DNA of 57,449 nucleotides from a bacterium (GCA_021828445.1 JAJZJD010000001.1:1-57449), one strand, 5' to 3'. Positions 5,516-52,381 are shown, numbered from the stretch's first letter. The notes: generated by a model not told the origin, from the letters alone. Made by a program: numbers and translations.

Positions 5516-5719
5516 AAAATAATTAAAATTTATTTAAATTATATAAATTTTATGTTGCAAATATTTTAATAAAATTATTAAATAAAATATATATCGTAAA
5601 TTATATATATTAAATACCGCATAATTTACGCGTTGCAGTTATTATATGCTGTAAGCAAAAAAGGCATTAATAAATATAATCATCTAAATAATAATAACAG
5701 GGATAGCAAAGGGGGAATT

Positions 5720-6103: not shown

Positions 6104-6894
6104 TGAGTTTTAATCTTATAATTTCAGGCGGACATTCCGGCAGTTTTAACATGTCCGCCGACCTTTTTTTATTAAACAAGTATAAAACGGCGGATGCTTT
6201 TTCCGCAAATCCAACCTTAAGGATTTATTATTTTAATCCTCCTGCGTTATCGTTAGGTTTTTTTCAAAAAGATAAGAATACAGACGATAAAATTATCGAA
6301 AAAGCTAAAAACAAGGGTTTCGACGTTGTTTCGAGACCGACCGGCGGCAGGGCGGTTCTTCATAAATCGGAAATAACCTATTCTGTAACCGCATCTTACA
6401 AAAACGGAATTTTTGCCGGAAAGCTTATCGAAACGTATAAAAAAATAAGCGAGTTCCTTTATCTTTTTTTTATCAAACTCGGATTAAAACCGGATAACGG
6501 GGATTATCCGAGTAAAAATATGCATCGCGGTAAAAATAATTTTAATTGTTTTCTTAAAGCCCATTCTTACGAAATAACGTTCGGCGGAAGAAAAATTTGC
6601 GGTAATTCTCAGAGAAGAAACGATTTTGCGTTTCTGCAGCACGGTTCTATTTACATAGATTACAAACCGGAGGAGCATATTGAAATATTCGATAACGAAG
6701 GCGGCGGAAATCATAACGAATATTTTAATAACATTACGGGTATCCGGCAGGAAATCGAAAGAAGTGCAGAATTAAATGAACCAAATAAACAAATTGCCGG
6801 AGAATTAACCTTTAATTATCTTTCCGAAATTTTAGCGGCGTCATTTTCCGAAGCCTATAATTTAAAGCCTCTTATTATTCAAGAAAATATTTGA
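6103..6894 (+). CDS. lipoate-protein ligase / octanoyltransferase family protein (BPL_LplA_LipB fold)
   Basis: RPTGGRAVLH and GGRKICGNSQRR motifs. The start overlaps the gcvH stop by 1 nt (TAATG), which fits lipoylation of GcvH. Confidence 0.7.
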   Translation: MSFNLIISGGHSGSFNMSADLFLLNKYKTADAFSANPTLRIYYFNPPALSLGFFQKDKNTDDKIIEKAKNKGFDVVSRPTGGRAVLHKSEITYSVTASYKNGIFAGKLIETYKKISEFLYLFFIKLGLKPDNGDYPSKNMHRGKNNFNCFLKAHSYEITFGGRKICGNSQRRNDFAFLQHGSIYIDYKPEEHIEIFDNEGGGNHNEYFNNITGIRQEIERSAELNEPNKQIAGELTFNYLSEILAASFSEAYNLKPLIIQENI

Positions 6895-7081
6895 AAAAAT
6901 ATTTTTTGCCTAAATTTTAACCAATAATTTATATATATTAAAAACTGCCTAATTTTTAATCATATAAATCCTGCTTTTATTTAATCTTTAAACTTATAAT
7001 AGTTTTCATTTTTTTTGTTTAATCAAGGCATTCCGCTGTTTTAAGCATTACAAATTTAATAAATTACATAATTGAAACGTT

Positions 7082-7097
7082 TGGCATAAAACTTGCT
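7082..7097 (+). promoter_or_regulatory. sigma-54 (-24/-12) type promoter TGGCAT-N5-TTGCT
   Basis: TGGCATaaaacTTGCT has correct GG-N10-GC spacing. It lies about 100 nt upstream of the porin-glnK-amtB genes. Confidence 0.6.
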
Positions 7098-7199
7098 AAT
7101 TAAAAAGTAAGCCGATTTAAAATGTATTCGAGCTAAGGCAGTTAAATTTATCAAGTATACATAAAAAAAAGAAAAAATAAAAATTTAAGGGGAGAAATC

Positions 7200-8672
7200 A
7201 TGAGATTGAAATTCAGAGGATTAATTTTAAGCGCTGTTTTTTTTATTGCGGCATTATTTTTATTAATGTTTGCGGTACATAAAAAGGCCTATGCGGCAAA
7301 TGCCGTTTCTAACGTTGGAAGCGGAAGCGGAAGCGGAAGTTTAAAAATAGGAACAAACGCAAAAATAAAAAAAATAGAAAGAAAATTAGACAAGGCTTTA
7401 ATGGAAATTCAATCTATTAAAAAAGAAAACAAAGCGCAAAATTCCGGAAACTATTTTTCAAACATTCAACTTCTGGGTACGCTGATAGCTTCTTATACCT
7501 ATAACCTTGCAAAACCTGAAGCGGTTAATACCCCTTCTTCTTTCGAGGGAAACGGCAACTACGGAGATAACTGGCAGCCTGACGGATTTGCGGTAAATAA
7601 CGCAGACATAACTATAAGGCGTTCTCCGGGAACTTCTTCCGATCCTTACGGCGTCGGTTTTCATATTTCATTAGATTTTGGGCAGAATATTCAGTTTTAT
7701 AAATCTTATTACGGCGATACGTCATATTTTACAACGCCTTTTGAAGGCAGAACTCCTTACGATATAAGAAAGGCATATATAAATATAAACCTTCCCGTAG
7801 GAAGCGGTCTTGATATTCATATCGGAAAGGAAAACGAACTTCTGGGATTCGAGGCGTTTAATCCGATAAGAAACTGGAACGATACGTATTCGCTGCTGGA
7901 TGCCGCGGAACCGGCAACTTTGACCGGCGTGTTTTTAACGTACAACTTTATACCGGCTCTTACTTCTACACTTGGAATAGCAAATACTTATAACTCCGCA
8001 GTTCCTATAGACAACCTGCCGGTTATAGAACTTAACGAAAGTTACGCCGCAACGGGTATGCTGACATTTAACGGGGGATTTATTTACGGAGAAAACAGCT
8101 ATCTTGTAGGAAACGGCACCGGCGGAAGCACAAGCGGACAACTTTACGAAGACAACCTCAATAAAAGCTTTTACGGCTATATCGACGGCGTATTAAGTCC
8201 TAATCCCGACTGGTCTTTCGTTTTAGACTACGAACTAGGTTTGGGCGGCGGAATAAACGACTCGGTGCTTAACGATAACGGAATTACCGCAAGTAATTTT
8301 AACGGCTATCCGGCTTTAGTCCAAACCTCAAGCAATACATACGATAAATCCCGTTTTTACGGCATAGCGGGCTATATTCACCACCAGCATAATTACGGCT
8401 TTGGACAGGTGGCGGAAACATTAAGGGAAACGGCCGCATACGACCAGAACGGCTTGTGGGAGATGACGAGCACTCCGGGAACAGGCGATGTATATATAGA
8501 TTCAACCCTGACATTTGCTTATCAACCGTCTTTTAAAAATTTTAAAGATGTGCAGCTCAGGCTTGAACTTGAACATCAGGGTTCAAACCATAACGTATAT
8601 TTAGATTCAAACGGATCAGCGACGCACTCTCAGCAGAACACCGTAAACCTGATGATTCTATACAGTTTTTAA
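7200..8672 (+). CDS. putative outer-membrane beta-barrel porin (signal peptide, N-terminal coiled-coil, C-terminal Phe)
   Basis: Signal peptide ending AYA-A, a short coiled-coil (KKIERKLDKALMEIQSIKKEN), alternating aromatic/Gly-rich strands and a terminal LMILYSF. Family not recognised. Confidence 0.55.
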   Translation: MRLKFRGLILSAVFFIAALFLLMFAVHKKAYAANAVSNVGSGSGSGSLKIGTNAKIKKIERKLDKALMEIQSIKKENKAQNSGNYFSNIQLLGTLIASYTYNLAKPEAVNTPSSFEGNGNYGDNWQPDGFAVNNADITIRRSPGTSSDPYGVGFHISLDFGQNIQFYKSYYGDTSYFTTPFEGRTPYDIRKAYININLPVGSGLDIHIGKENELLGFEAFNPIRNWNDTYSLLDAAEPATLTGVFLTYNFIPALTSTLGIANTYNSAVPIDNLPVIELNESYAATGMLTFNGGFIYGENSYLVGNGTGGSTSGQLYEDNLNKSFYGYIDGVLSPNPDWSFVLDYELGLGGGINDSVLNDNGITASNFNGYPALVQTSSNTYDKSRFYGIAGYIHHQHNYGFGQVAETLRETAAYDQNGLWEMTSTPGTGDVYIDSTLTFAYQPSFKNFKDVQLRLELEHQGSNHNVYLDSNGSATHSQQNTVNLMILYSF

Positions 8673-8702
8673 AGGTGTCAGATTTATTTATTTGTTTACT
8701 CT
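8666..8702 (+). repeat. 37-nt repeat copy 1 (TTTTTAAAGGTGTCAGATTTATTTATTTGTTTACTCT)
   Basis: 36/37 identical to 31508-31544. Spans the porin stop codon and the start of the porin-glnK spacer. Confidence 0.8.
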
Positions 8703-8743
8703 TGGCAAGGTTTGCGAGATTGAACAGACTCAAAAAATAATAA

Positions 8744-9103
<360 letters not shown>

Positions 9104-9236
9104 TCAATGTCGCCGTAAAATGTAAAATGATTAAATTTTTAGCATATCTATATCAATATAGATAATGAATATAGATAATGCGCAGTATTTTAAAAACAGT
9201 ATATTAAAAATAAATATTAAGGAGGAATGGGAAATT

Positions 9237-10595
9237 ATGAATCTCATTAAAAAATTAAAAAATTTTAAAATACCTTTGATATACGGCTGGTCTTTATTAG
9301 GCGGACTAATGCTGGTAATGTTTTCCTGGGTAAGCCCCGTATTTGCGGCTGCCTCGAAGATTCCTGCGTTTAACAGCGGAGATATAGCCTGGGTGCTTGC
9401 CTCGTCCGCATTGGTTTTAATAATGACGCCGGGACTTGGTTTTTATTACGGCGGCATGGTAAGAAGAAAAAACGTTTTAAATACGATTTCGCTTAGTTTT
9501 ATCGCTATTTGCACGGTAAGCATTATATGGATTCTATGGGGATATTCATTGGCATTCGGCCCCGATTCTTTTGGGGGAATAATAGGCAGTCTTAAATATA
9601 TAGGCTTATTTGCGATGAAGGAAACGCAGCATTCAAGATACGACGGCAAGATTCCTTCTTATATTTACGTTATGTTTCAGTTGATGTTTGCAATTATAAC
9701 CGTCGCTCTTGTCAGCGGTTCATTAGTTGAAAGAATTAAATTTTCTTCTTGGGTAATATTTACCATAGTATGGCTTACGGTTGTTTATGCTCCGGTTGCT
9801 CAAGCTGTATGGGGTATCGGAGGGTTGTTTAATAAAATGGGAGCGCTCGATTTTGCCGGCGGAACGGTAGTCCATATTAATTCCGGCGTCGCGGGTCTTG
9901 CAGGGGCATTAGTCCTTGGAAAAAGAAAAGGCTATATGAAAGAAAATATAGTTCAGCCCAATCAGTTAGGTTATACAATACTGGGAGGCGCTCTTTTATG
10001 GTTCGGATGGTTCGGATTTAACGCGGGAAGCGCCTTAGAGGCAAATCCTTTAGCAACGTCGGCATTTTTGGTGACAAATACCGCTACGGCAGCCGCCGCT
10101 ATAGGCTGGATGATAGCCGAATGGATCAGAAGCGGAAAACCGACGACTCTCGGTATGGTTTCCGGCGCCGTTGCCGGACTTGTAGCTATAACTCCCGCAT
10201 CGGGTTTCGTAAATCCGATAGATTCTATTATTATAGGTTTCGTAGCAGGGGTAATTTGTTATTCTATGGTAGTTTTCGTTAAACCGAAATTAGGCTACGA
10301 CGATGCACTCGATGCCTTTAACGTTCATGCGATAGGCGGTGCATGGGGAGCACTTGCAACCGGTTTGTTTGCCGACCCGCTGATTAATTCGGCAGGAAGA
10401 GGTTTGTTTTACGGCAATCCAGGTCAAATGTGGATTCAGCTGTTGACCGTAGTTTGCGTTGCGGCGTATTCGTTTACGATGAGTTATATAATCTTTAAAG
10501 TAATAGACAAAGTTATGGGCCTTCGCGTCGATAAAGAAACCGAGGCAATGGGTTTGGATATTACGCAGCATGACGAAGCGGGTTATAATTTCTAA
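9237..10595 (+). CDS. amtB: ammonium transporter
   Basis: Amt signatures DFAGGTVVHINSGVAGL and FGWFGFNAGS, multiple TM helices. ATG at 9237 follows AAGGAGG, so the longer ORF-track start is unlikely. Confidence 0.93.
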   Translation: MNLIKKLKNFKIPLIYGWSLLGGLMLVMFSWVSPVFAAASKIPAFNSGDIAWVLASSALVLIMTPGLGFYYGGMVRRKNVLNTISLSFIAICTVSIIWILWGYSLAFGPDSFGGIIGSLKYIGLFAMKETQHSRYDGKIPSYIYVMFQLMFAIITVALVSGSLVERIKFSSWVIFTIVWLTVVYAPVAQAVWGIGGLFNKMGALDFAGGTVVHINSGVAGLAGALVLGKRKGYMKENIVQPNQLGYTILGGALLWFGWFGFNAGSALEANPLATSAFLVTNTATAAAAIGWMIAEWIRSGKPTTLGMVSGAVAGLVAITPASGFVNPIDSIIIGFVAGVICYSMVVFVKPKLGYDDALDAFNVHAIGGAWGALATGLFADPLINSAGRGLFYGNPGQMWIQLLTVVCVAAYSFTMSYIIFKVIDKVMGLRVDKETEAMGLDITQHDEAGYNF

Positions 10596-10676: not shown

Positions 10677-12470
10677 TCATACTTCCCTTTTATTGCTTTT
10701 AATATACGGCAATATTTCTTCCAAAGAAGTAACGCCGCTTAAAAATTTTTCTTTTGCAGAATCCGAAAGAGTTTTCATGCCGTTTTTTATTGCCGACTTT
10801 TCTATTTCGGATTCCGCCGCATTACCGTTTATCAGCTCTCTTATTTCATCGTTTATTTCAAGCATTTCGTATATCGGTATTCTGCCTTTATATCCGGTAT
10901 TATTGCATGTCGGACATCCTTTTGCTTTAGCTTTATAAAGTTTAAAATAATTATTTTTATTTTGCCGGTAATTATCGCTATCGGTGTATGCGGCGGATAT
11001 TCCGAGTTTTTTTACGGCAGATTCGTCAAGTTCTTCTTTGCATTCTAAACAGAGTTTTCTTATAAGCCTTTGCGCTATAATAAGGTTTAAACTCGATGAA
11101 ATTAAAAAAGGTTCGATATTCATATTAATTAATCTTGTTACGGTAGCCGAAGCATTGTTCGTATGAATAGTCGAAAGAACCAGATGCCCCGTCAGTGCAG
11201 CCTGAATGGCTATAGAAGACGTTTCGTAATCCCTGATTTCCCCTACCATAATTATATCAGGATCCTGTCTTAAGAAAGATCTGAGAACCTCGGCAAAATT
11301 TAAAGTTGCGCCGGTCTTAGAATTTTTAAGCGTTTCGTCTATCTGTATCTGATTTATCCCTGAAAAATCATATTCTATCGGATCTTCCGCCGTCGATATA
11401 TTTATAGATTCGTTTTTATTTAGTTCGCTTAATATGGAATAAAGCGTCGTAGTTTTTCCGGAACCGGTAGGACCGGTAACGAGTATCATGCCGAAAGGCT
11501 TATTTATTGCAGATTTTAGTATGTTTAAATGAGCCGGAGAAAACCCCACCCTGTTTATATCGAAAATCAGAGACGATTTATTCAATATCCTCATGACTAT
11601 TTTTTCGCCGAAAAGTGTCGGCGCCAAGGATACTCTTAAATCAATTTCTTGTCCGGAAACCGATGTAGAAATTCTTCCGTCCTGAGGAAATCGTTTTTCC
11701 GATATATCTAAATTAGGCTCGCACTTTATTTTTATCACGGATACTATATTCGATTTTGCGGTTGAAGAAATATTGGCATATCCGATAAGTTTCCCGTCTA
11801 TCCTGAATCTTATCCTTGAAAACTTTCTATAATTTTCTATATGTATATCGCTTGCTCCGCGTTCTACGGCATCGCTTATAACTTTATTTATGAATTTTTC
11901 TACCGCGCTTTCGCTGATTTTATCTTTTGTTATGTCGCTTATTTCGCTGTCTTCCGCAATCGTTTGCGCTGAATTTTCATCGTTTTTAAATTTGTCGAGC
12001 AGGAAAGAAGCGTTGTAGTATTTAGACATTGCGTTTATTATCTGCGAATAAGAGGATATCGAATATAATGCCGGAAATCCGGTAATAAATCCTATATCGT
12101 CGGCAACGTCCATTCTTGACGGATCGTATGCAGCTAAATAAAGGTTTCCGTTTTCTATTTTATAAGGTATAACGCGGCATTTTAAAGCTTTATCGGGCGG
12201 AATTATGTTGATAACATTTTTTGGAATATCTACGGCGTTTATATCGACGTATTCTATTTTATAAAATTTAGATAAAAAATCTACAAGTTCGTTTTCTTTT
12301 ATTTTGTTTTCGTCTATAAGAATTTTTAGAAAAGATTTGACAGGTAAATTCTCTTTTTTTAAAGCCGATTCTAAATCCGCTTTTTCTATTAAACCGTTAG
12401 ATACTAAAATTTCTCCGAGTTTCTGCTCTCCGGTATTTTTTTTGGGATAACAGTTTAAATTTGTATCCAT
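10677..12470 (-). CDS. GspE/PilB-family secretion ATPase (type II secretion / type IV pilus)
   Basis: Walker A GPTGSGKTTT, Asp/His boxes (MVGEIRD, LTGHLVLSTIHTN), a tetracysteine CLEC...CPTC motif and an N-terminal T2SSE_N-like domain (KLGEILVSNGLIEKADLESAL). Confidence 0.85.
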   Translation of the reverse strand: MDTNLNCYPKKNTGEQKLGEILVSNGLIEKADLESALKKENLPVKSFLKILIDENKIKENELVDFLSKFYKIEYVDINAVDIPKNVINIIPPDKALKCRVIPYKIENGNLYLAAYDPSRMDVADDIGFITGFPALYSISSYSQIINAMSKYYNASFLLDKFKNDENSAQTIAEDSEISDITKDKISESAVEKFINKVISDAVERGASDIHIENYRKFSRIRFRIDGKLIGYANISSTAKSNIVSVIKIKCEPNLDISEKRFPQDGRISTSVSGQEIDLRVSLAPTLFGEKIVMRILNKSSLIFDINRVGFSPAHLNILKSAINKPFGMILVTGPTGSGKTTTLYSILSELNKNESINISTAEDPIEYDFSGINQIQIDETLKNSKTGATLNFAEVLRSFLRQDPDIIMVGEIRDYETSSIAIQAALTGHLVLSTIHTNNASATVTRLINMNIEPFLISSSLNLIIAQRLIRKLCLECKEELDESAVKKLGISAAYTDSDNYRQNKNNYFKLYKAKAKGCPTCNNTGYKGRIPIYEMLEINDEIRELINGNAAESEIEKSAIKNGMKTLSDSAKEKFLSGVTSLEEILPYIKSNKREV

Positions 12471-12695
12471 TTTTATATCTTATATTATTTCGATATAATT
12501 AATAAATTTATAATATTTTAATCTTATATTATTAAAATTATAATATGCATTTAAATTAAAAAAAATTATATCATTTAAAAATATTATGGGCAACGTAATA
12601 ATTTAAACGCAATAATTAAATTGACATAAATTCTTTAAATTATATAATAATAAATAATAGTATAATTTGTTATATAAAAAATTAGGAGATACTTT

Positions 12696-14093
12696 ATGTC
12701 TAAACTGCTCGACGTAAAAATTATTCCGCATAGAAGTTACCTAATGGCAGATACACCGGATCAAAAACTTTTTATAGAGTTAAAGCTTCAGGCAAACCGG
12801 AAGACCGATTTTAAACCTAATTTATCTATAGCGTTTATAATAGATACTTCTGGGTCTATGAGGGAGATTGTTGCCGGTTCTCCGGTAAATACGGGGAAAA
12901 TGCAGACTATGGACGGCAGTACTTATAATATAGTAGCCGGAGGCGATTCTAAAATAGGAATTTTAATCGACGGACTGAAAAAATTTGTCGATTCGGCGAA
13001 ATTGAAAAATACCGACAGGGTAAGCCTTATTAAATTTGACGATAAAGCGGATGTTTTATTGCCTTTCGTTAATATAGAGAGTAAAAATAAGGATTTAATA
13101 TTGAATGCAATAGACAGTCTTATAAATTACAGCGGCGGCACGTCAATGGGCGCGGGAATGAAAGAGGCTTTAAATTTAATGTCTAAAGAAACCGGAAACA
13201 GAAAGATTATACTGCTCACCGACGGACAGACCTCCGACGAGGATTTGGTAAAAGAAATGTCGCTGGAACTGGCAAAATTAAATATACCGTTAATAGCCGT
13301 AGGAATCGGCGAAGACTGGAACGAAAATCTTATTTCTTTTATTACCGATAAAACGCAAGGCAAACCTTATTATGCTTCGGTTAACGGCGAAGACGATGCA
13401 TCGGGAATAATTATAAAACCGTCGGATATACCGGGCATTATGATAAAAGAATTAGAACATGCGGTTAATGAAACTCTATCCGGTGTATCTCTTGCGTTAA
13501 ATACGGTAAAAGACGTCGCTATAGACAGGATAACGAAAGTTTATCCAGAAGTTTCCGAGGTCGATATAAATATAAAACCTCATTTTCTCGGCAGTATAAA
13601 TCCCGAAGGAAACAGCGTTTTTATAATAGAATCTACTTTGCCTGAACGCAAACCCCTCAAATCCCGTCTTATGCAGCTAAGTTTAACTTACGATATGCCG
13701 GATGGAAATTACCGCGGAGAAAATCCTCCCGAAGACGTTATAGTCGAGTTTACTATGGACGAATCCAAGGCATCGGTTGTTAATAACGAAGTAATGCAGT
13801 GGGTTCAGCAAAGAAATGTAGGCAGTTTATTGGAAAAAGCAATAAAAGAAGCCGGCGAGGATCCTTCCAACGCCTCTAAAACTTTAGATATGGCAAAGCG
13901 TATGACAGTTAAGCTCGGCAATAGCGCTATGACGAAAATAATAGAGAGGGCGCAGGATGAAATAAAAGAAAATAAAACTATAAGCATCGGTACGTCGAAA
14001 ACTTTAAGGATAGGTTCAAAAACAAAAACAATAAAAATTAGTCCGGAAAGCGAACTTTCCGACGAGCAGATTAGAAAACTTGCCGGAATTTAA
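12696..14093 (+). CDS. von Willebrand factor A (vWA) domain protein
   Basis: MIDAS motif IAFIIDTSGSM, plus later GGTSMG and LLTDGQTSD. About 230-aa C-terminal extension of unknown fold. Confidence 0.8.
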   Translation: MSKLLDVKIIPHRSYLMADTPDQKLFIELKLQANRKTDFKPNLSIAFIIDTSGSMREIVAGSPVNTGKMQTMDGSTYNIVAGGDSKIGILIDGLKKFVDSAKLKNTDRVSLIKFDDKADVLLPFVNIESKNKDLILNAIDSLINYSGGTSMGAGMKEALNLMSKETGNRKIILLTDGQTSDEDLVKEMSLELAKLNIPLIAVGIGEDWNENLISFITDKTQGKPYYASVNGEDDASGIIIKPSDIPGIMIKELEHAVNETLSGVSLALNTVKDVAIDRITKVYPEVSEVDINIKPHFLGSINPEGNSVFIIESTLPERKPLKSRLMQLSLTYDMPDGNYRGENPPEDVIVEFTMDESKASVVNNEVMQWVQQRNVGSLLEKAIKEAGEDPSNASKTLDMAKRMTVKLGNSAMTKIIERAQDEIKENKTISIGTSKTLRIGSKTKTIKISPESELSDEQIRKLAGI

Positions 14094-14160: not shown

Positions 14161-14361
14161 ATGAAAATATGTCCGGTATGTAAAAAAAAGTTTACGGACG
14201 ATAAGAAATTTTGTAATATAGACGGTTCCGAATTAATAGATTTTGAAATGCCGGAAGAAAATTTAAGCTTAAACAAACCTTCAATTAATAATATTGAAAG
14301 CTCAAATGAAAACCTATCCGGCGCCGCCGGTAATTTACCTGAAAATATAGAAAAACCGTAA
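14161..14361 (+). CDS. small zinc-ribbon protein
   Basis: CPVC-x11-CNIDG ribbon at the N-terminus. GGAGG RBS. The stop codon abuts the ATG of the FHA gene. Confidence 0.5.
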   Translation: MKICPVCKKKFTDDKKFCNIDGSELIDFEMPEENLSLNKPSINNIESSNENLSGAAGNLPENIEKP

Positions 14362-14715
14362 ATGATTGCGGATTTTAAACCTGCGCGTTTAACATTTAAA
14401 ATAGGCGGCAGTTTAACGGATAAATCTTTTGATTTAAAATCTGATTATTTGATTGCAGGCAGGTTCGATTCGTCTGCCGGTCCAATAGATATCGATTTGT
14501 CCGGATTTTCCGGAGACGAGCACATATCGAGGAAACATGCGAAATTTACTTTTGAAAACGGCAAATGGTTTGTTTCAGACGCAGGTTCCACAAACGGCGT
14601 TTTTGTAAAATCTGCTTCAGCTAACGAATTTTCGTCAAGAATTACCGGACCGGTCGAATTAAATAACGGGGACGAAGTATCGTTAGGCAATATGCTTTTT
14701 ATGTTTAACGTCTAA
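14362..14715 (+). CDS. FHA domain protein
   Basis: GR...ISRKHAKFTFENGKWFVSDAGSTNGVFV...GDEVSLG is the canonical FHA core (Arg, Ser-x-x-His, Asn-Gly). Confidence 0.85.
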   Translation: MIADFKPARLTFKIGGSLTDKSFDLKSDYLIAGRFDSSAGPIDIDLSGFSGDEHISRKHAKFTFENGKWFVSDAGSTNGVFVKSASANEFSSRITGPVELNNGDEVSLGNMLFMFNV

Positions 14716-14790: not shown

Positions 14791-16419
14791 ATGCATAAAG
14801 AAAAACTTGAAGAAAAAATATATTCGGAACCTTCCGAAACGCAGCTTTTAAAAGAAGGCGATATAATAAACGCCGGCGGCATTGAATTAAAAATCGAAGG
14901 TCCTTTTATACAAGGATGGCATTCGGCTAAAAATAATGCGGGAGAACCGGTTTTGTATTACAGGGGTAATTGCGGTTTATGGAAAGACGTTCTTGGATGT
15001 TCCGCCCTGCCCGATATTTTGCTTTGTACGGATAATGAAATAATAATTTCGGCGCATAACGAATATACAAAATACGAATTTAAAATTCCTTCTTCAAAAA
15101 AAGAAACCGGACTAATAGTAAAATATATTTCCGATTTAGCTGAAATTATCAAGTTTTTTAACGGACAGGGAATATCTGTGCTATATATCAATCCCGATTC
15201 TTTATATGTTTGCGGCGATAAAATTAAATTGAATATACTGCCCGATTTATCGGAAATCGGAAAAAAAATGTTTTCACCGAGAGATTTCGTCGCCCCTGAA
15301 GTTTTAATGCATGATATCGCAACCGGAAAAGAAGGAGTTTACGTACTGGGTCTTATTGCTTACAAGTTTTTAACGGGAGATAATATAAATACTTACAATA
15401 TCGATGTTTCAAATTATATTAACGATATAAAAATACCGGGTTTCCCCCAATTTTTATCCAGAACGCTTTCAAGGCGGGAAGAGAGATTTAATATCGATGA
15501 AGCAATAGGTTATTTAAAAAATATTAACGAAGAAAGAAAAGCGGCGGTAAGATTCGATATAGGAATATCTTCGTCCGTAGGCTTAAATCCGGATAGGCTT
15601 GTAGATGAAGATGCCTGCGGTTACTTTATCGAAAACAATATAAATTTTAGCGAAAAAAACGTCGTGCTAAAAGCATGCCTTGCGGATGGGATGGGCGGAA
15701 TGGCGGCTGGAGAATATGCAAGCAAGGCTGCCGTTAAAGGTTTTTTGAAAAATTCAGAAAACGGCGAAAATTTTTCTAAAGACCTTAACGATCTAGTAAT
15801 GGATTCGGCATGGCAGGCAAATAAAAGCGTATTCGACGAGCTTCGAGGAAAAGACGGCGGCTGTACTTTTATAGGCATTATTTTTAAAAACGAGACGTTT
15901 GCTTTGGCTCATGTCGGGGATTCAAGGGCTTATCTCTGGGTTAATTCGGAATCGGAAGATAAATTAAAAAGGCTGACAAAAGATCATTCTTATGTTTCGC
16001 TTATGGTATCAAGCGGCAATATGTCCGAAGAAGAAGCAAGAATAAGCCCGGACAGAAATAAAATTTTAAAATCCTTGGGAATAGTAAGGAACAGACAGAA
16101 CGAATATTTTGACGATTTACAAAAAACTATAGGAAAAAAAACGGAAGATTTAAATATAGGCGATATTATTCTAATAGTATGCGACGGGATATGGTCGGAG
16201 TTGGAAGAGATAGATATCATGAAGATTTTAAGCAATTCATCCTGCGGCATTGAATACTCTGAAGCTAAAGACGCGGAAGCAAAAGACGACGACTGCGCCG
16301 TTTGCGGCACTATAAATAAATTCGGCGCTCAATATATAGCCGATACGCTTGTTTCTTTCGCAATAGAAAAAGGGGCTCCCGATAATGCGACGGCTCTTGT
16401 TATTAAGCGTATTTCATAG
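14791..16419 (+). CDS. degenerate protein-kinase-like domain fused to a PP2C-family Ser/Thr phosphatase
   Basis: C-terminal half carries PP2C motifs ADGMGGMAAGEYAS, HVGDSRAYL, VCDGIW and DNATALVI. The N-terminal half keeps a kinase C-lobe-like APE segment (DFVAPEV...GLIAYKFLTG) but has INPDSL instead of HRD-K-x-x-N and no DFG. Confidence 0.75.
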   Translation: MHKEKLEEKIYSEPSETQLLKEGDIINAGGIELKIEGPFIQGWHSAKNNAGEPVLYYRGNCGLWKDVLGCSALPDILLCTDNEIIISAHNEYTKYEFKIPSSKKETGLIVKYISDLAEIIKFFNGQGISVLYINPDSLYVCGDKIKLNILPDLSEIGKKMFSPRDFVAPEVLMHDIATGKEGVYVLGLIAYKFLTGDNINTYNIDVSNYINDIKIPGFPQFLSRTLSRREERFNIDEAIGYLKNINEERKAAVRFDIGISSSVGLNPDRLVDEDACGYFIENNINFSEKNVVLKACLADGMGGMAAGEYASKAAVKGFLKNSENGENFSKDLNDLVMDSAWQANKSVFDELRGKDGGCTFIGIIFKNETFALAHVGDSRAYLWVNSESEDKLKRLTKDHSYVSLMVSSGNMSEEEARISPDRNKILKSLGIVRNRQNEYFDDLQKTIGKKTEDLNIGDIILIVCDGIWSELEEIDIMKILSNSSCGIEYSEAKDAEAKDDDCAVCGTINKFGAQYIADTLVSFAIEKGAPDNATALVIKRIS

Positions 16420-16530: not shown

Positions 16531-18258
16531 ATGACGGATTGTCCTTATTGTTCCTCTCCTATACCTGATAATGCAGTAAAATGTCCGGTTTGCGGAGGAG
16601 ATATATCTGACGCTTTAGGAGAAAGCTCTTCCTGTACTCCGCTCGATAACGGGAGTATTGTTTTTTTAAAATATAAAATAGAAAAAGTCTTAGGGCAGGG
16701 CGGTTTCGGAATAACATATCTTGCTTATGACGAAAAGTTAGAAAGAAAAGTTGCGATAAAAGAATATTTTCCCGACGGTATTGCCGTCAGAACAGGAAGC
16801 AAAGTTACAATTCCGCCAACCCGCGACAACGAAGAAAATATAGAAAATTTTAAAAATGAAGCAAAATCTATAGCAAAATTAAAGAATCCATGGATAGTCG
16901 ATGTTTACGACGTAATCGAAGAAAACGGCACCGTTTATATCGTCATGGAATACATCGAAGGAACGCCCCTGTCCTCTCTTTTAGGGAAAATAAAAGAAAA
17001 TGAAGCCGTTAAATATATAAAACAGATTGTCAAAGCAGTAGGAATAATACATTCCGCCGGCATGCTGCATCAAGATATAAAGCCGGAAAATATTATATTA
17101 AAAAACGGCGAAGAAATTAAAATTATAGATTTTGGTTCTTCCAGAGTATTTACGGCGGATAAAACTAAAACTTACGAAAAAATTTTAACGCCGGGCTATG
17201 CTCCTTTAGAGCAATACGGAGGCAAAGGTAAAAGAGGCGAATATACCGATGTTTATGCAATATGCGCTACACTATACGCTCTTTTAAAAGGATTTCCTCC
17301 TCCGGAAGCTACCGAATTAGCCGGAGGAATAGGCATAGATTTTACGGGAATAAGCGTCGGATTAAAAGATATTTTGAATAAAGGACTAACGGTAAAAATA
17401 CCGGAAAGGATAAAAAATACGGAGGAATTGCTTAAACTTTTAGGCGAATTAGAAAAGCCCGAAGTTTTTGCCGCCGACGAAGGAAATATATCCGAAATTA
17501 AAAATTCGAGCGGTGCCTCCTCCGTCAAATTTAACCAAAGAGAAAATAAGCAGGCAATTACGTTCGGACGACCGGGCGATGCTATCGCCGGAAATATCGG
17601 AGCGGATAAAGCAGAAATACCAAATCCCCCCGGAGTTAAAAACAATATAAATTCAAATTCAAACTATAATTATAATTCGAAAAATACAATAAATTTAATT
17701 ATTGCCGCCGCCGCAATAATACTTCCCTTATTTCTTTTAATTGCGGCAGGTTATTTTTTTTATTTTAGAGATTTTTTCCTTAAAAAAAATATAACCGCCA
17801 ATTCCGGAAATGCGGCAGTTTCAAAAAAAACATTAAACTTAAAACCGTTCTCTAAAAATAATAACAAAAACATTAAAAACAAAAATATTAATAATACTCA
17901 TGTGCAGCAGCCTGCGTTAAATCAAAATACGGCCGCCCGCCATATTACATATCATCGCCGTTACCGCAAACCGGCATTCAGCCCTGCTCCCGCACCCCAA
18001 TTTCAGCCGCAATCCCATACTTCCGTATTTACCGGTCCGGGCTATGAAGATTTCAATATGTCGGGATGTTTTTACTGCCACGTTATATTCGGCAAAGGGA
18101 AACAGGGCGGTTACAGCCTTTCCCATATCGGTTCGCAGTTAAGTTATGCGCAGATAGAAAATCAGATTACGCATCCAAGTTCTTCTATGCCGCCTAACCC
18201 AAATATGCCTGCAGAAGAAGTCGCGCAGATTGCGGGCTGGTTAGAAAGTTTAAAATAA
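16531..18258 (+). CDS. Ser/Thr protein kinase with N-terminal zinc ribbon, one TM helix and a C-terminal extracytoplasmic cytochrome c (CXXCH) domain
   Basis: CPYC-x11-CPVC ribbon. Kinase motifs GQGGFGITY, VAIKE, HQDIKPENI, DFGSS, GYAPLE. TM helix LIIAAAAIILPLFLLIAAGYFFYF. CFYCH at nt 18067-18081, followed by SSMPPNP and an amphipathic C-terminal helix as in class I c-type cytochromes. Confidence 0.8.
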   Translation: MTDCPYCSSPIPDNAVKCPVCGGDISDALGESSSCTPLDNGSIVFLKYKIEKVLGQGGFGITYLAYDEKLERKVAIKEYFPDGIAVRTGSKVTIPPTRDNEENIENFKNEAKSIAKLKNPWIVDVYDVIEENGTVYIVMEYIEGTPLSSLLGKIKENEAVKYIKQIVKAVGIIHSAGMLHQDIKPENIILKNGEEIKIIDFGSSRVFTADKTKTYEKILTPGYAPLEQYGGKGKRGEYTDVYAICATLYALLKGFPPPEATELAGGIGIDFTGISVGLKDILNKGLTVKIPERIKNTEELLKLLGELEKPEVFAADEGNISEIKNSSGASSVKFNQRENKQAITFGRPGDAIAGNIGADKAEIPNPPGVKNNINSNSNYNYNSKNTINLIIAAAAIILPLFLLIAAGYFFYFRDFFLKKNITANSGNAAVSKKTLNLKPFSKNNNKNIKNKNINNTHVQQPALNQNTAARHITYHRRYRKPAFSPAPAPQFQPQSHTSVFTGPGYEDFNMSGCFYCHVIFGKGKQGGYSLSHIGSQLSYAQIENQITHPSSSMPPNPNMPAEEVAQIAGWLESLK

Positions 18259-18300: not shown

Positions 18301-18831
18301 ATGAAAATTATTCTTAAAAAAAATTTAATTTTTGCATTGATTGCGGCGGGTATGCTGTTTGCGTTAAATTATATTAACTGCAATAAAGTTTATGCGGCGG
18401 TAGGCGGCACTTTAAAAAATATGCAGTCAAAATACAAAATGCAAAAGATTTCTTTGAAAAAACTTTATATTATACAGCCCGATCTGTCGCAGTATAATTA
18501 TAAAAATTCCGGTATAACGGCATACGAATATAAGATTAACAAAGTTAAATACGAAGCGGTGTTTAATGCCGGCGGAGTATGCTGGCTGGAATTTGCTATT
18601 TCTAATAATTCGGCGGTAATACCGTTAAGTTCTTTGATCGAAAAAAATCTTTACGGTTATCCGATACTATTCAAAACTATAAAATACGTACCTAACGTTT
18701 ACGAAAAATTGCAGTATGGGAGAAACGTAGGAAAAGTGATTTATATAATGCAGTATATTTACGAAAACAATTCCATATTGCAGGAAGCGGTTATGCCTTC
18801 CATGTCTCCGGACGGCAACTACGGAAATTAA
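18301..18831 (+). CDS. secreted hypothetical protein
   Basis: Signal peptide (…NKVYA-AVGG) and a good RBS (AAGGAG). No recognisable domain. Confidence 0.45.
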   Translation: MKIILKKNLIFALIAAGMLFALNYINCNKVYAAVGGTLKNMQSKYKMQKISLKKLYIIQPDLSQYNYKNSGITAYEYKINKVKYEAVFNAGGVCWLEFAISNNSAVIPLSSLIEKNLYGYPILFKTIKYVPNVYEKLQYGRNVGKVIYIMQYIYENNSILQEAVMPSMSPDGNYGN

Positions 18832-20261: not shown

Positions 20262-21176
20262 TTATAAAATAGGAGTCGAACTGGGCGTTGCGTAAGAATG
20301 CAATCCCGGTATTATCAAATCTACGCCGAGATAACAGAATATAACTACCGCAAATCCGATGACGGCGATCCACGCCATTTTTTTACCGCCCCATCCTTTG
20401 GTAAATCTTGCATGAATAAATAAAATGTATGCTATCCACGTTATAAGCGACCATGTTTCTTTAGGATCCCAGCTCCAGTAACCGCCCCAGGCGCTGTCCG
20501 CCCATGCGGCGCCAATTACTATTCCTGCGGTTAAAAAAACGAGCCCGACCGATATCACCTTATAAATAGATTCTTCTATTACTGCAGATTCCGGCAAAAG
20601 CGATAAAAATCGGTTTTGCTTTTTCTGCTTTGTGTTTTCGATATCTTTATTTTTTGATTTGCCGGTTTTTATAAGATAAAGTATTCCAAGACCGAATGAA
20701 GCCGCAAATGCGCCGTATGCGACAAATAAAGTCATAATATGGTATATAAGCCAGTAGCTTTGCAGAGCAGGAATTGTAGGTTCTATTGCGCTTGTCGCAA
20801 GAGGATAAAAAGTTGCGAAAGCAAGAGCCGCCGATGCTATAAACGTAATTATAAAACCAAGGGCATCAAAATCGTAAAAAATTCTTAAAATTATATAACC
20901 GATTTCGATAACGTAAGCAAAGAAAACCATAGAGTCGTATAGATCGACTAACGGCGGCGTATCTATCCCGATTTTATAGGCATATATCCATCTTATAACG
21001 AATGCCGCGGTCTGAATTATAAAACCCGCAATTAGAATAACGAAAGATATTTTTGAAATCATCTTGCTTCCGGTAAATAAAAAAATAAAATAACCTATAA
21101 AAGAAGCGAACACGAAAAGAAGCGAAACCGTAAAATATAAGGAACCGTCAAGTACGGATATATTCGGCGAAATCAT
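20262..21176 (-). CDS. ccsA: cytochrome c biogenesis protein CcsA/ResC (System II heme handling)
   Basis: Trp-rich WWD motif WGGYWSWDPKETWSLITW, polytopic membrane protein, adjacent to a ResB-like gene. Confidence 0.85.
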   Translation of the reverse strand: MISPNISVLDGSLYFTVSLLFVFASFIGYFIFLFTGSKMISKISFVILIAGFIIQTAAFVIRWIYAYKIGIDTPPLVDLYDSMVFFAYVIEIGYIILRIFYDFDALGFIITFIASAALAFATFYPLATSAIEPTIPALQSYWLIYHIMTLFVAYGAFAASFGLGILYLIKTGKSKNKDIENTKQKKQNRFLSLLPESAVIEESIYKVISVGLVFLTAGIVIGAAWADSAWGGYWSWDPKETWSLITWIAYILFIHARFTKGWGGKKMAWIAVIGFAVVIFCYLGVDLIIPGLHSYATPSSTPIL

Positions 21177-21211: not shown

Positions 21212-22567
21212 TTAATGTAAGTATTTTTTTAGTTCGCTAATTTTTTTATCAAATTTCTTGTAAAAAGAATTAAATTTCTTTTTTGGAATAGAAATTATTT
21301 CAATCTTCGTTTTTTTAGCATCATTAATGCCGGATAGCGATACCCACGTCTCTTCGTGATTAAAGAAAAATGAAAAAAATAAAGAAATCACAAGAATTAT
21401 ACATCCTATCCAAACTACAGATACGTAAGTATTTTTAGATATTTCGACGCCGCTGTAATAGTAAGTTTTTAATTGCGGAGTCATTATAAAGCCGATATTT
21501 TTATATCTTGCTATAATAAGCGGGAAATTGTTATTTTTAACCCGTATAACCCTAAAATTTAAAATTTTTTTATTATTTAGTTTAATTATATAAGGGAAAT
21601 AGGGCATTTTACCTTTTCTAACAACCCTGATTAGCATAAATTTAATGTTATTTATTTTAGAATTATAATATTTTCCCGCCGATGCATATATTATTTTTTT
21701 AAAAGATTTAATGTGCCGTAAATTAACTATTAAGATACCGTATTTGTCAGGTTTATAATGTCCGTAGCTTGCCTGGTAGATAGTAATGCCTTTATAAGTT
21801 AAAGGATGGTTTACCTCTATGTTTTTTGTCAAAATTCTTATATGTTCTTCAATTATACTTATAGTGCTAATGTAAGCCTTAGGAATTCCGTCAGAATAAT
21901 AAGTCGTGCGGTATCTGTCGAGCCTTATCGTAAACGGAAGTTTAATCGGTTTGTTGTTTTTTAAAAGGTAAGTAACGTTAGTTTTTTTTCCTACTTTAAT
22001 GTTGGTATAAGACCTGAATCCGTATTTAAAATTAAGCAACACTCCTATAATAATAATTATTACGCTTATGTGGGCAATGTAAGGAGAAAATCTGAAAATA
22101 GAATTTCGGGAATAGTATAATTCTGCTTTATCGCTGTTTTCGCTTATTTTTTCGTATAACGGCTCCCCGAATTTTTTACCTATAACTTCTTTTAATTCTT
22201 CCGGTTTCTTTTTTGTTTCGATTGCCTCATATACCGCTTTAGGGTTTTTCTTTTCCGATACTTCTTGAAAAGAGGGATAAGGACCGAAAACCGCTTTTAT
22301 AGTACGCGGAAACATATTGATAGATGCGGCTATAAGATTAACTATCAGAAGCAGGGTAAGCGCGATGAAATACCACGAATCGTAAATATTTAAAAAGCCG
22401 AGCCAGTATAATACGTGATAAGCCGCCGGCGAAAAAATAGTTTTATACTGTTTTATCGTATCGCCTTGGTTTATAAACGTACCTATCATTGCAAGAACGG
22501 CGATTGTTATAAAAAGAAAAACGGCGAGTTTAACAGAAGAAATAAATTTATTTAATTTTGACAGCAT
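21212..22567 (-). CDS. ccsB: cytochrome c biogenesis protein CcsB/ResB
   Basis: N-terminus KLAVFLFITIAVLAMIGTFINQG, a large extracytoplasmic loop and a C-terminal TM helix. Immediately upstream of ccsA. Confidence 0.75.
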   Translation of the reverse strand: MLSKLNKFISSVKLAVFLFITIAVLAMIGTFINQGDTIKQYKTIFSPAAYHVLYWLGFLNIYDSWYFIALTLLLIVNLIAASINMFPRTIKAVFGPYPSFQEVSEKKNPKAVYEAIETKKKPEELKEVIGKKFGEPLYEKISENSDKAELYYSRNSIFRFSPYIAHISVIIIIIGVLLNFKYGFRSYTNIKVGKKTNVTYLLKNNKPIKLPFTIRLDRYRTTYYSDGIPKAYISTISIIEEHIRILTKNIEVNHPLTYKGITIYQASYGHYKPDKYGILIVNLRHIKSFKKIIYASAGKYYNSKINNIKFMLIRVVRKGKMPYFPYIIKLNNKKILNFRVIRVKNNNFPLIIARYKNIGFIMTPQLKTYYYSGVEISKNTYVSVVWIGCIILVISLFFSFFFNHEETWVSLSGINDAKKTKIEIISIPKKKFNSFYKKFDKKISELKKYLH

Positions 22568-22812: not shown

Positions 22813-23895
22813 ATGAAAAATTTGGAAGAAAAAGCGGAAAAATTTAATTACAGCGATTTAAACGAAAGGAGCAGAGAAATACTTCTCGGCATAGTAGAAG
22901 GGTATTTTGGAACGGCAAGTCCCGTAGGTTCTAAATTTATCGCCGAAAACAGCAAACTTAATTTAAGCTCTGCTTCTATAAGAAATATTATGGCTTTGTT
23001 GGAAGAAGCCGGTTATATTTTTCAGCCGCATTTTTCAGCCGGCAGGATTCCGACGGCTAAAGGATACAAGTTTTATGTCGACAGTTTGATGAAAACCGAA
23101 AAAATTTCCCTTAAAGAAAAAGAGAACATAGAAATAAGATTATCTTCGTCAAACAGGGATTTAAACGGAATATTAAATCAGGTTTCCATACTGCTTTCCG
23201 ATTTGTCTCATTACGCAGGCGTGGTTTTGGCGCCGGATATGTCCGAAGCTAATCTTTTACATATAGAATTTATAAGGATAAAAGAAAAAAATATACTTGC
23301 TATTATAGTGTTTGCAAACGGAATTACGGAAAATAAATCGTTTTATATAACCAAAGATATAAAACAAAACGAACTTACGCGCTATTCTAATAAATTAAAC
23401 GAAATAATCGAAAGGAAGAATTGCAGCTTAGACGATTTAAAAGAAATAATAACCGAAGAAATGCATAGCGATAAGGAAATTTTTTCTTCTATTTTAAATA
23501 AGGAAATTTTTTCTTCCATAGGAAATGTTTCCGGCTATAGGGATTATGAGCATTACGATAACTGTCTTTACGTCGGTCCGGAGGGAGATTTAATAGAAGA
23601 GCCGGAATTTTCCAATAATGAGCAGATAAAATTTCTTATAAAGACAATTTCGGACAAAAAAAATATCATAAAACTTCTCGGACATACTAAAAATTCCAAA
23701 ACAAAACAGATATTCATAGGTTCGGAAGAAGAGTGGTCTGAGATATCCGGTCTTTCCCTTATAACGGCGCCTTATATAAGCGAGGCCAATATGCTTAGGG
23801 GGTCGATAGGAATAATAGGGCCGTTAAGAATGAATTATTCCCACGTTATTCCTATAATAGATTTTGTATCGGAATTTTTAAGCGGCATTATATGA
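22813..23895 (+). CDS. hrcA: heat-inducible transcription repressor HrcA
   Basis: LNERSREILLGIVEGYFGTASPVGSKFI...SSASIRNIMALLEEAGYIFQPHFSAGRIPT. First gene of a CIRCE-controlled hrcA-grpE-dnaK-dnaJ set. Confidence 0.9.
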   Translation: MKNLEEKAEKFNYSDLNERSREILLGIVEGYFGTASPVGSKFIAENSKLNLSSASIRNIMALLEEAGYIFQPHFSAGRIPTAKGYKFYVDSLMKTEKISLKEKENIEIRLSSSNRDLNGILNQVSILLSDLSHYAGVVLAPDMSEANLLHIEFIRIKEKNILAIIVFANGITENKSFYITKDIKQNELTRYSNKLNEIIERKNCSLDDLKEIITEEMHSDKEIFSSILNKEIFSSIGNVSGYRDYEHYDNCLYVGPEGDLIEEPEFSNNEQIKFLIKTISDKKNIIKLLGHTKNSKTKQIFIGSEEEWSEISGLSLITAPYISEANMLRGSIGIIGPLRMNYSHVIPIIDFVSEFLSGII

Positions 23896-23964
23896 ATATA
23901 AATTATTGCATGCATTCAAATTAAATAACGGCATAATAAAAAATAAATAAAGGAGATATATTTA

Positions 23965-24642
23965 ATGCGTTTAGACGAAGAAAATGCGGAATATGAAAGA
24001 ACGAACCGAGATGCCGGCGATTCCGAAATAGAATCCGAATTAGGAAAAAAGATGGAAACGGAACCGCATGGACAGGAGAATATCGTCATCGAAAACGATG
24101 CCGATATCGATATGATTCCCGACCCAAAAAATCTCGTTGAAGCGGAAAAAACTTTAAAATACTTAAAAAACGTACTTAAAAATTTAAAAAAAGAAAACGA
24201 CGAAGCAAATGCAAACTATCTTAAGAGCTTAGCCGAAATGGAAAATTTTAGAAAAAGAAACAACAGAGATAAAGAAGAGGCTCTAAAATATTCCAACGAA
24301 AAAATATTAAGGGATTTGCTTCCCGTTCTCGATTTTTTAGATCTGGCTATAAGTCATTCCGCTGCATATATGGAACAGGACGCTTCCGGAAATTTAAAAT
24401 CTTTCGTTGAAGGCGTTAAATTAGCCTATGACGAATTTATTAAAATTTTAAAAAATTACGGAGCGGAAGTTATAGAAACGGTAGGGAAAAGTTTTGACGC
24501 TAATTTTCACGATGCCGTAGAAATGGTCGAAAATTCCGGAAAACCCGACGGAACTATAATCGAAGAAAAAAGGAAGGGTTATGTTTTTAAAGAAAGGCTT
24601 TTGAGGCCGGCTATGGTTTCTATAGCCAAATCTAAAAATTAA
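23965..24642 (+). CDS. grpE: nucleotide exchange factor GrpE
   Basis: AEMENFRKRNNRDKEEALKYSNEKILRDLLPVLD and FDANFHDAV...RLLRPAMV match GrpE. Confidence 0.9.
   Translation: MRLDEENAEYERTNRDAGDSEIESELGKKMETEPHGQENIVIENDADIDMIPDPKNLVEAEKTLKYLKNVLKNLKKENDEANANYLKSLAEMENFRKRNNRDKEEALKYSNEKILRDLLPVLDFLDLAISHSAAYMEQDASGNLKSFVEGVKLAYDEFIKILKNYGAEVIETVGKSFDANFHDAVEMVENSGKPDGTIIEEKRKGYVFKERLLRPAMVSIAKSKN

Positions 24643-52304: not shown

Positions 52305-52381
<77 letters not shown>

Follow-up and report, generated by a model that had tools for sequence, protein, structure and literature searches.

The kinase–cytochrome gene

We analyzed a stretch of bacterial DNA of 57,449 nt (GCA_021828445.1, JAJZJD010000001.1:1-57449), referred to below as the window and numbered from its first nucleotide, and within it a gene that joins a eukaryote-like protein kinase to a cytochrome. 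The gene is an open reading frame (ORF) for a 575-aa protein at 16531..18258 on the + strand, and it is the fifth of six co-directional genes that encode, in order, a vWA-domain protein, a zinc-ribbon protein, an FHA-domain protein, a PP2C phosphatase, the kinase and a secreted 176-aa protein. An initial annotation of the window had proposed a Hanks-type Ser/Thr kinase fused to an extracytoplasmic c-type cytochrome domain. The ORF, Pfam matches and an alignment of orthologs confirmed the fusion of the two domains, and we describe the product as a Hanks Ser/Thr kinase of the receptor type that ends in a cytochrome c domain.

The protein begins with a Cys4 zinc ribbon (aa 1-25; 16531..16605, +) that the initial annotation had also recognized; C4, C7, C18 and C21 are invariant in 23 orthologs, though the Pfam match is weak (Zn_Ribbon_1, E=5e-4, 20.1 bits vs. 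a cut-off of 25). The kinase catalytic domain follows (aa 46-300; 16666..17430, +), with a Pkinase match over aa 48-272 (138.4 bits vs. a cut-off of 31.7, E=3.8e-40) and the motifs GQGGFG55, VAIK74-77, HQDIKPEN180-187, DFG200 and APLE224, which are invariant in the orthologs. The catalytic motifs had been described as intact, and all are indeed present, but the catalytic loop reads HQD and not HRD. HQD is invariant across the alignment of 23 orthologs, and because Gln replaces the Arg of HRD the enzyme is a non-RD kinase. On every sequence feature considered, the protein is a member of the Hanks-type Ser/Thr kinases. Its best kinase match in NCBIfam is the Stk1/PknB family, which covers the catalytic domain at 163.8 bits vs. 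an equivalog cut-off of 450 bits.

Between the kinase and the membrane lies a cytoplasmic, low-complexity juxtamembrane linker (aa 301-383; 17431..17679, +) of ~83 aa, longer than the ~60 residues first estimated, with a mean pairwise identity of 0.20 among orthologs and a ratio of nonsynonymous to synonymous substitution rates (dN/dS) of 0.46-0.82. The zinc-ribbon and kinase region ahead of the membrane thus amounts to 383 aa. A Kyte-Doolittle scan, in which a region was counted when its mean exceeded 1.6, found one hydrophobic transmembrane (TM) segment at aa 384-414 (17680..17772, +; best 19-aa window mean 2.79) and no other in the protein, close to the single helix placed earlier at ~17690-17770; every one of the 23 orthologs likewise has a single hydrophobic region. 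The TM segment is followed by 161 aa rather than the ~170 aa first given. This outer part comprises a basic, N/K/P-rich linker that is hypervariable in length and sequence (aa 415-499; 17773..18027, +) and a class I, c551/CcoP-like monoheme cytochrome c domain (aa 500-575; 18028..18255, +), which is assigned from Pfam, NCBIfam, conservation, a PDB profile search and a predicted fold. The domain carries CFYCH at aa 513-517 (18067-18081, exactly where it had been reported), the sole CXXCH of the protein, and a predicted axial Met553 (18187-18189, +), identified by alignment and invariance. No Cache or PAS match to Pfam was found anywhere in the protein, and the folded portion of its outer segment, predicted to be a class I cytochrome, measures only 76 aa.

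Family, conservation and origin of the heme domain

Searched alone, the last 100 aa of the protein passed the Pfam cut-offs of both Cytochrome_CBB3 (29.0 bits vs. 27) and Cytochrom_C (25.1 vs. 21.3), and the best cytochrome models for the domain in NCBIfam were c551 and c550. A profile of the domain family, searched against PDB sequences, retrieved c-type cytochromes in all 60 rows listed, the top match being the diheme protein Kustd1711 (E=1.4e-14). A single-sequence phmmer search with the 80-aa domain gave nothing significant against the same database (best E=0.15), and only the family profile was sensitive enough to detect the PDB cytochromes. In the profile alignment the column of M553 corresponds to residue 292 of Kustd1711, at which the M292C mutant entry has Cys, and according to the structural study of Kustd1711 it is M292 that coordinates the iron on the distal side. 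Aligned pairwise, the domain and Pseudomonas aeruginosa c551 match from end to end, with CXXCH on C12, C15 and H16 and M553 on the Met of a common MPPN motif. The initial annotation had suggested that the Met of SSMPPNP could serve as the axial ligand, and the invariance of M553 and its alignment with both M292 of Kustd1711 and the MPPN Met of c551 bear this out.

A first AlphaFold2 model, built from an alignment of nine sequences, had a predicted local distance difference test (pLDDT) score of 56 and was unusable. Repeated with 71 sequences, the prediction for the domain reached a pLDDT of 76.8 and a predicted template-modeling score (pTM) of 0.69 and showed the expected helices. When this model was compared with the PDB by Foldseek, the top 50 matches were all class I cytochromes c (TM-score ~0.69, probability up to 1.0, E ~0.06), including the cytochrome domain of caa3 subunit II, Bacillus pasteurii c553, SorU and c551. 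We therefore assign the domain, with the moderate confidence that such a prediction allows, to the class I alpha-helical cytochrome c fold.

Twenty-four full-length or near-full-length relatives of the protein were found in independent NCBI, JGI, ENA and Logan assemblies, at identities from 86% down to 41%. Conservation was scored on 23 of these, the most distant being P0025 at 41% identity. C513, C516 and H517 are invariant in all 23, so that the CXXCH motif is conserved down to 41% identity, as are M553, P554 and P555. Both linkers vary greatly in length and sequence, and the orthologs range from 528 to 677 aa. Mean pairwise identity is 0.80 in the kinase and 0.76 in the cytochrome domain as against 0.20-0.24 in the linkers, and dN/dS, calculated by the Nei-Gojobori method against five related loci, is 0.04-0.11 in the kinase, 0.07-0.10 in the cytochrome domain and 0.25-0.8 in the linkers. 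These values indicate that purifying selection on the cytochrome domain is as strong as that on the kinase domain. The layout of a small class I cytochrome c, which had been claimed for this region, is now supported by six agreeing lines of evidence, namely profiles, conservation, identity, dN/dS, relatives in the PDB and fold. Judged by profile, motif, ligand position and predicted fold, CXXCH is not a chance motif here and the C-terminal domain belongs with the class I cytochromes c. We infer from these features that C513 and C516 would bind the heme covalently and that H517 and M553 would ligate its iron axially.

For each protein search we examined the best 120-150 matches, so the survey of distribution given here is not exhaustive. 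Among the matches listed in a profile search, the nearest homologs of the domain are ~60 proteins of 111-130 aa that carry classic Sec signal peptides and have the same CXXCH...MP...YLESLK layout as the domain of the kinase. Identity to these free cytochromes is 32-43% by BLASTP, with a mean of 44% in alignment A3. In a scan of GTDB species genomes, the kinase was found in ten loci of nine metagenome-assembled genomes (MAGs), of which one is Candidatus Acidulodesulfobacterium and the others are acid-mine-type bins, and free monoheme cytochromes occur in 9/9 of these MAGs. They are also present where the kinase had no match, in Ca. Acididesulfobacter diazotrophicus AP1, SZUA-79 and further members of the group. 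Remoter relatives, among the matches listed by HMMER, are cytochrome c domains found within cytochrome b-c fusions and multiheme proteins, both of which are respiratory electron-transfer proteins. By its sequence relationships, then, the heme domain is a recruit from the lineage's own family of secreted monoheme electron carriers. The free cytochromes closest to it form a tandem pair at L001:7477-8357, found also in L002 and L003, and adjoin exbB/exbD and a NirD/L-like gene (AsnC-type, possibly siroheme-decarboxylase-like).

One short homolog, P0121, was considered as a further free paralog and rejected. It has 111 aa and no signal peptide, and it corresponds at 65% identity to the last ~111 aa of the kinase. 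At L013:6724-8237 (MAG WY2.bin12), an ORF identical to P0121 stands immediately next to a vWA gene that is cut short at aa 395; FHA, PP2C and most of the kinase have apparently been lost from this locus. P0121 is thus read as what remained after a deletion fused the shortened vWA gene with the 3′ end of the kinase. Since it occurs on 13 contigs, a genuine remnant is more likely than a single misassembly.

An ancestry among electron carriers would suit a rather different role, in which the cytochrome is a tethered carrier or docking handle beside a respiratory complex, much like a cytochrome cy, and does not gate the kinase; the latter might be controlled from the cytoplasm instead, for example by the zinc ribbon, FHA or PP2C. 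In cytochrome cy of Rhodobacter, a long flexible linker ties a class I cytochrome c on the outer face of the membrane to a TM anchor. From the TM segment onward the kinase protein has this same layout, a CcoP-cytochrome cy fusion chain (6xkx) was among the PDB sequence matches, the nearest relatives of the domain are electron carriers and cytochrome b-c fusions, and a disordered, hypervariable linker of 85 aa would transmit a conformational change poorly. The anchor of cytochrome cy, in contrast, is short and N-terminal, whereas here it comes after 383 aa of zinc ribbon and kinase. Moreover, the fusion is kept in every full-length ortholog found, with both domains under strong purifying selection; the same MAGs already have free paralogs for electron transport; and dimerization that depends on ligand or state can signal over a flexible linker. 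We consider a carrier or docking handle that does not gate the kinase decidedly unlikely.

Proposed signaling from heme to kinase

The interpretation we prefer is that the kinase is a receptor controlled by its own heme. The single TM segment, the need of a kinase for cytoplasmic ATP and the homology of the heme domain to secreted cytochromes together argue that the C-terminal cytochrome domain is probably located outside the cytoplasm, and the protein as a whole would then be a membrane-spanning kinase that probably converts the redox or ligand state of an external heme into cytoplasmic phosphorylation. In its more specific form, to which we give slightly better than even chances, it is a single-pass Hanks receptor kinase in which a periplasmic heme c, matured by CcsBA, senses redox poise, with FHA, PP2C and vWA proteins acting downstream.

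A working scheme can be outlined. The zinc ribbon and kinase would lie in the cytoplasm, and the TM segment with the flexible, basic linker of ~85 aa would carry the 76-aa cytochrome into the periplasm, where CcsBA would attach heme covalently to C513 and C516 and where H517 and M553 would serve as axial ligands. The heme domain might then trade electrons with the same periplasmic partners as the free cytochromes do. By such exchange, its Fe(II)/Fe(III) state would report the redox poise of the pool of cytochrome c in the periplasm, which in a microaerobic, acidic habitat rich in iron and sulfur would reflect the balance of electron donor and O2. A redox-linked change in the conformation or dimerization of the outer domain could reach the kinase by way of the TM helix, as happens in bacterial receptor kinases that likewise cross the membrane once, and the kinase would autophosphorylate or phosphorylate its partners on threonine. 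The FHA protein would read the phospho-threonine, PP2C would reset it, and the vWA protein would be a likely scaffold or target.

We favor redox poise as the input because the relatives of the domain are soluble and bc cytochromes and because the rigid His/Met ligation and the MPP signature have been kept. A genomic study of the lineage described it as microaerobic, with high-affinity terminal oxidases and candidate cytochromes of iron oxidation, and given such a physiology a redox sensor would have an obvious use. More tentatively, electron transfer into its own heme may gate the kinase, which would thereby read the cytochrome c pool and the balance of iron/sulfur oxidation and oxygen and signal to the vWA, FHA and PP2C proteins. 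This version possibly involves the 176-aa protein and nearby genes for a type IV pilus or secretion system.

Several observations weigh against a heme-gated receptor. Searched at full length, the protein falls just under the Pfam cut-offs for Cytochrome_CBB3 (25.1 bits vs. 27) and Cytochrom_C (18.3 vs. 21.3), and several orthologs lack a precomputed cytochrome call in Pfam. The outer linker (aa 415-499) is strongly basic, with 14 K+R, 0 D+E, an isoelectric point (pI) of 11.7 and 16% Asn, and the numbers of K+R on either side of the TM segment are ambiguous, so that the positive-inside rule lends no support to an outside C-terminus. Classic class I cytochromes with His/Met ligation are electron carriers, and we found no precedent for one as a signaling input. 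Because the kinase is non-RD, control by phosphorylation of the activation loop may not apply. Finally, the clade of the window's protein lacks a 17-residue loop directly before the Met ligand, kept in P0025 and in the free cytochromes, and its loss could alter ligation. We also observed that a basic composition free of acidic residues is unusual for a translocated segment.

The borderline score at full length and the ambiguous K+R counts would both fit a heme-free relic or a domain that stays in the cytoplasm, with CXXCH put to some other use, for instance binding a metal or contacting a protein, and the 111-aa remnant ORF, which has no signal peptide and survives the deletion of the kinase in one lineage, might be cited to the same effect. 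Against this stand the invariance of the full ligand set (C, C, H and M), a dN/dS of ~0.09 and the homology of the domain to cytochromes that bear signal peptides, and one hydrophobic segment together with the need of the kinase for cytoplasmic ATP would force the C-terminus outside. A relic or cytoplasmic domain therefore strikes us as very improbable.

The missing loop bears instead on what a heme-controlled kinase might sense. The domain could be a sensor of small ligands, in which nitric oxide (NO), CO, O2 or sulfide displaces a labile Met553 and the change in coordination switches the kinase. The known periplasmic heme-c sensors (GSU0582/GSU0935; sCache_heme, NO) work by ligand binding or axial ligation, and one heme-c receptor with NO bound raises phosphorylation by its associated Ser/Thr kinase. 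Besides the deletion of 17 residues before the Met in the clade of the window, the lowest confidence of the structural model outside its N-terminal residues falls on the stretch before the Met (residues 51-60, mean pLDDT 68). In other respects the domain has an ordinary His/Met class I fold with the rigid MPP(N) that it has in common with c551, cytochromes ligated in this way are normally six-coordinate and poor binders of ligands, and the distant ortholog P0025 retains the full loop, like the free electron-carrier paralogs. We regard a ligand-sensing kinase as unlikely, and redox poise is retained as the favored input.

Comparison with known systems helps to place the protein. Receptor kinases of the PknB/PknD type likewise have an N-terminal cytoplasmic kinase, a juxtamembrane linker, one TM segment and an extracytoplasmic sensor, but their sensors are PASTA repeats or a beta-propeller and not a heme-c cytochrome, and the non-RD HQD loop and the N-terminal zinc ribbon set the present protein apart. 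HRI of animals is a heme-controlled Ser/Thr kinase that is cytosolic, binds a b-type heme non-covalently and senses heme availability; it has neither the c-type attachment nor the membrane topology predicted here. Small class I cytochromes (Pseudomonas c551/c8, B. pasteurii c553, caa3 subunit II, CcoP, Kustd1711) and the lineage's own secreted monoheme cytochromes resemble the domain in having CXXCH toward the N-terminus and the axial Met of MP(P) toward the C-terminus, in ending with an amphipathic helix and in the predicted fold. They either are free or belong to an oxidase or bc complex, whereas here the cytochrome is tethered to a kinase, and the free paralogs carry the 17-residue loop before the Met that is absent from the clade of the window.

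The closest functional analogs are the periplasmic heme-c sensor domains, GSU0582 and GSU0935 of Geobacter, which are PAS-like, and sCache_heme. A periplasmic heme-c Cache receptor (Cache_heme-HAMP, CHH), described in 2026, relays its signal to a Ser/Thr kinase that associates with it in trans, and binding of NO enhances phosphorylation of the receptor by this kinase. Like our protein as we read it, such sensors use a covalent c-type heme outside the cytoplasm as signaling input, and the output of CHH is Ser/Thr phosphorylation. They are built on a PAS or Cache fold with an inserted CXXCH, in contrast to a complete class I fold without Cache, PAS or HAMP, and they act on methyl-accepting chemotaxis proteins (MCP), histidine kinases, GGDEF domains or a separate kinase via HAMP, in contrast to a kinase in cis. 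The kinase described here is thus best regarded as an analog in function and not a member of that group. The initial annotation had noted no characterized example of a heme-c-controlled Ser/Thr kinase; for a fusion in cis our reading of the literature agrees, while CHH provides a precedent in trans.

The fusion family comprises 25 clusters at 90% identity, the window's protein and P0025 included, among the matches listed. No kinase–cytochrome fusion outside this family (P0001-P0025) was seen among the listed matches to full-length, domain-profile and P0025 queries. An HMMER search with the domain over 1.84 billion representatives yielded 19,257 matches, of which the best 150 were examined, and the ten long matches that were scanned proved to be cytochrome b-c fusions or multiheme/multidomain cytochromes. 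Among the matches listed, the same architecture was found only in MAGs of the Candidatus Acidulodesulfobacteriota type, that is, within its own lineage. A full-text literature search returned no paper on a Hanks kinase with a cytochrome c domain, a 2005 survey of the domain architectures of prokaryotic Ser/Thr kinases does not mention cytochromes, and two genomic papers on the lineage do not mention a kinase. We consider this protein, a Hanks receptor kinase whose input domain has no earlier description, to be a well-supported lead restricted to one lineage.

Bacterial Hanks kinases are numerous, and for most the input signal is unknown. A covalent heme on the outside would suggest that this one responds to respiratory or redox conditions in the periplasm. 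Heme-c sensors have so far been PAS or Cache scaffolds, to which a complete class I cytochrome fold would be added, and to their known outputs (MCP, histidine kinases, cyclic-di-GMP and one Ser/Thr kinase in trans) would be added a Hanks kinase fused in cis. If electron transfer into its own heme gates the kinase, this would be a class of redox input new to Hanks kinases and the first signaling role of a complete class I fold. Candidatus Acidulodesulfobacteriota are uncultivated and important in the cycling of iron and sulfur in acid mine drainage, and the kinase gene is a candidate switch between their electron-donor and oxygen regimes. As the family is small and confined to one lineage, and its function is deduced, we regard it as a good lead and not as a surprise of the first rank.

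The gene cluster and its surroundings

The co-directional cluster of genes for vWA, FHA, PP2C and Ser/Thr kinase proteins, identified by Pfam assignments, is kept across related loci in tblastn searches. Even at the locus of P0025, the kinase of which is 41% identical, vWA, FHA, PP2C, the kinase and a 173-aa protein are encoded in the same order. A promoter-like TTGACA-16-TATAAT that matches the consensus at 12/12 positions lies at 12621..12648 (+), 48 nt upstream of the vWA start codon, in a region where promoter-like sites are overall no more numerous than expected from shuffled sequence. No convincing + strand terminator was found within the six-gene cluster, which is bounded by a divergent gene for a PilB-like ATPase and a convergent DUF1015 gene.

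The first gene (12696..14093, +) encodes a vWA-domain protein of 465 aa (Pfam VWA, E=1.4e-19) with no visible Sec-type N-terminus and is found upstream of the kinase in L004, L005, L007-L012 and L014. It is followed by the gene for a small, 66-aa zinc-ribbon protein (14161..14361, +), known from weak Pfam matches and detected by tblastn in L004, L008 and L010-L012, and by that for a 117-aa FHA-domain protein, a reader of phospho-threonine (14362..14715, +; Pfam FHA, E=9e-14), which occurs in L004, L005, L008-L012 and L014. The PP2C phosphatase (542 aa; 14791..16419, +; Pfam PP2C, E=6e-10) is present in L004-L012, in L006 only partially at a contig end, and in L014. Its N-terminal ~260 aa (14791-15600) are faintly kinase-like in a register from catalytic loop to APE. 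We do not adopt a pseudokinase reading of this half, as the resemblance falls short of significance (Pkinase, E=0.1; BLASTP against the kinase, E=0.4), though it may represent a degenerate pseudokinase that serves for docking.

The last gene (18301..18831, +) encodes the 176-aa protein, the N-terminus of which resembles a signal peptide and for which neither Pfam nor PADLOC gave a match. One Cys is invariant, as is a C-terminal EAxMPSMSPxG. The gene lies directly 3′ of the kinase wherever a locus reaches that far (L004-L008, L011-L014). By tblastn its product is 67-95% identical in these loci, and 40% in L014; the kinase taken as a whole is less well conserved. The protein may be a partner of the heme domain in the periplasm.

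A cluster of this kind has been studied in Deinococcus radiodurans, where the vWA-STPK-FHA-PP2C operon DRA0331-DRA0334 likewise encodes a vWA protein, a membrane Ser/Thr kinase, FHA and a PP2C with an additional N-terminal region. The gene order is different, however, the DRA0332 kinase has three C-terminal TM helices and no cytochrome domain, and genes for a zinc ribbon and a secreted 176-aa protein have been added here. Kinases of Deinococcus-Thermus are among the closest non-orthologous matches listed.

Neighborhoods with vWA, kinase and PP2C have also been discussed among conflict systems, and the kinase domain matches PADLOC PD-T4-6 and mad6 and NCBIfam MADS6, which would suit an anti-phage or conflict system of the kinase type with an incidental cytochrome. 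These matches cover only the generic kinase fold (MADS6, 106.9 bits vs. a cut-off of 460), the other five cluster proteins have no PADLOC match, and the cluster is vertically conserved, with stable synteny across the lineage, and is not patchy. In view of such generic matches and the lack of partner genes we rejected defense as the function of the cluster and accord it next to no probability; a heme-controlled receptor kinase with its FHA and PP2C partners remains our preferred interpretation.

Two loci, L005 and L007, belong to one MAG, DBS1-1.bin125, which thus holds two copies of the cluster, with kinases 62% and 55% identical to that of the window. L007 has two tandem vWA genes, and its FHA gene gave no tblastn match. 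The two clusters could reflect paralogy or a mixed bin.

System II ccsBA is needed for heme attachment. The genes ccsA (20262-21176, -; Cytochrom_C_asm, E=5.7e-48) and resB/ccsB (21212-22567, -; ResB, E=3.4e-70), which the initial annotation had placed 2.6 kb downstream of the kinase, were confirmed by Pfam and are found on the opposite strand, 2.0-3.0 kb downstream. Their presence indicates that the organism is able to mature c-type cytochromes. They adjoin the cluster only in L004 and L008, the two closest relatives, and are absent downstream in L007, L011 and L012. As the adjacency is kept only in close relatives it is probably coincidental, and a functional tie between the kinase and ccsBA was rejected.

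On the other side, the PilB-like T2SSE ATPase, which has an MshEN domain (10677-12470, -), is kept in L004, L005 and L007-L009. In L011, which is of the Acididesulfobacter type, pseudopilin-like genes with an N-terminal methylation motif lie 3′ of the cluster at 9111-9755 and 11226-11948. Any link of the cluster to type IV pilus or secretion genes is loose and unproven. The neighbors at 5633-10595 and 22813-24642 are ordinary housekeeping genes, among them gcvH, a lipoate-protein ligase gene, an OmpL-like porin gene, and glnB (P-II) with amtB. Downstream of ccsBA lies a gene that we take to be hrcA from its sequence and from an adjacent grpE-like ORF. An Rfam scan of the window found a single tRNA, at 52308-52381 (-).

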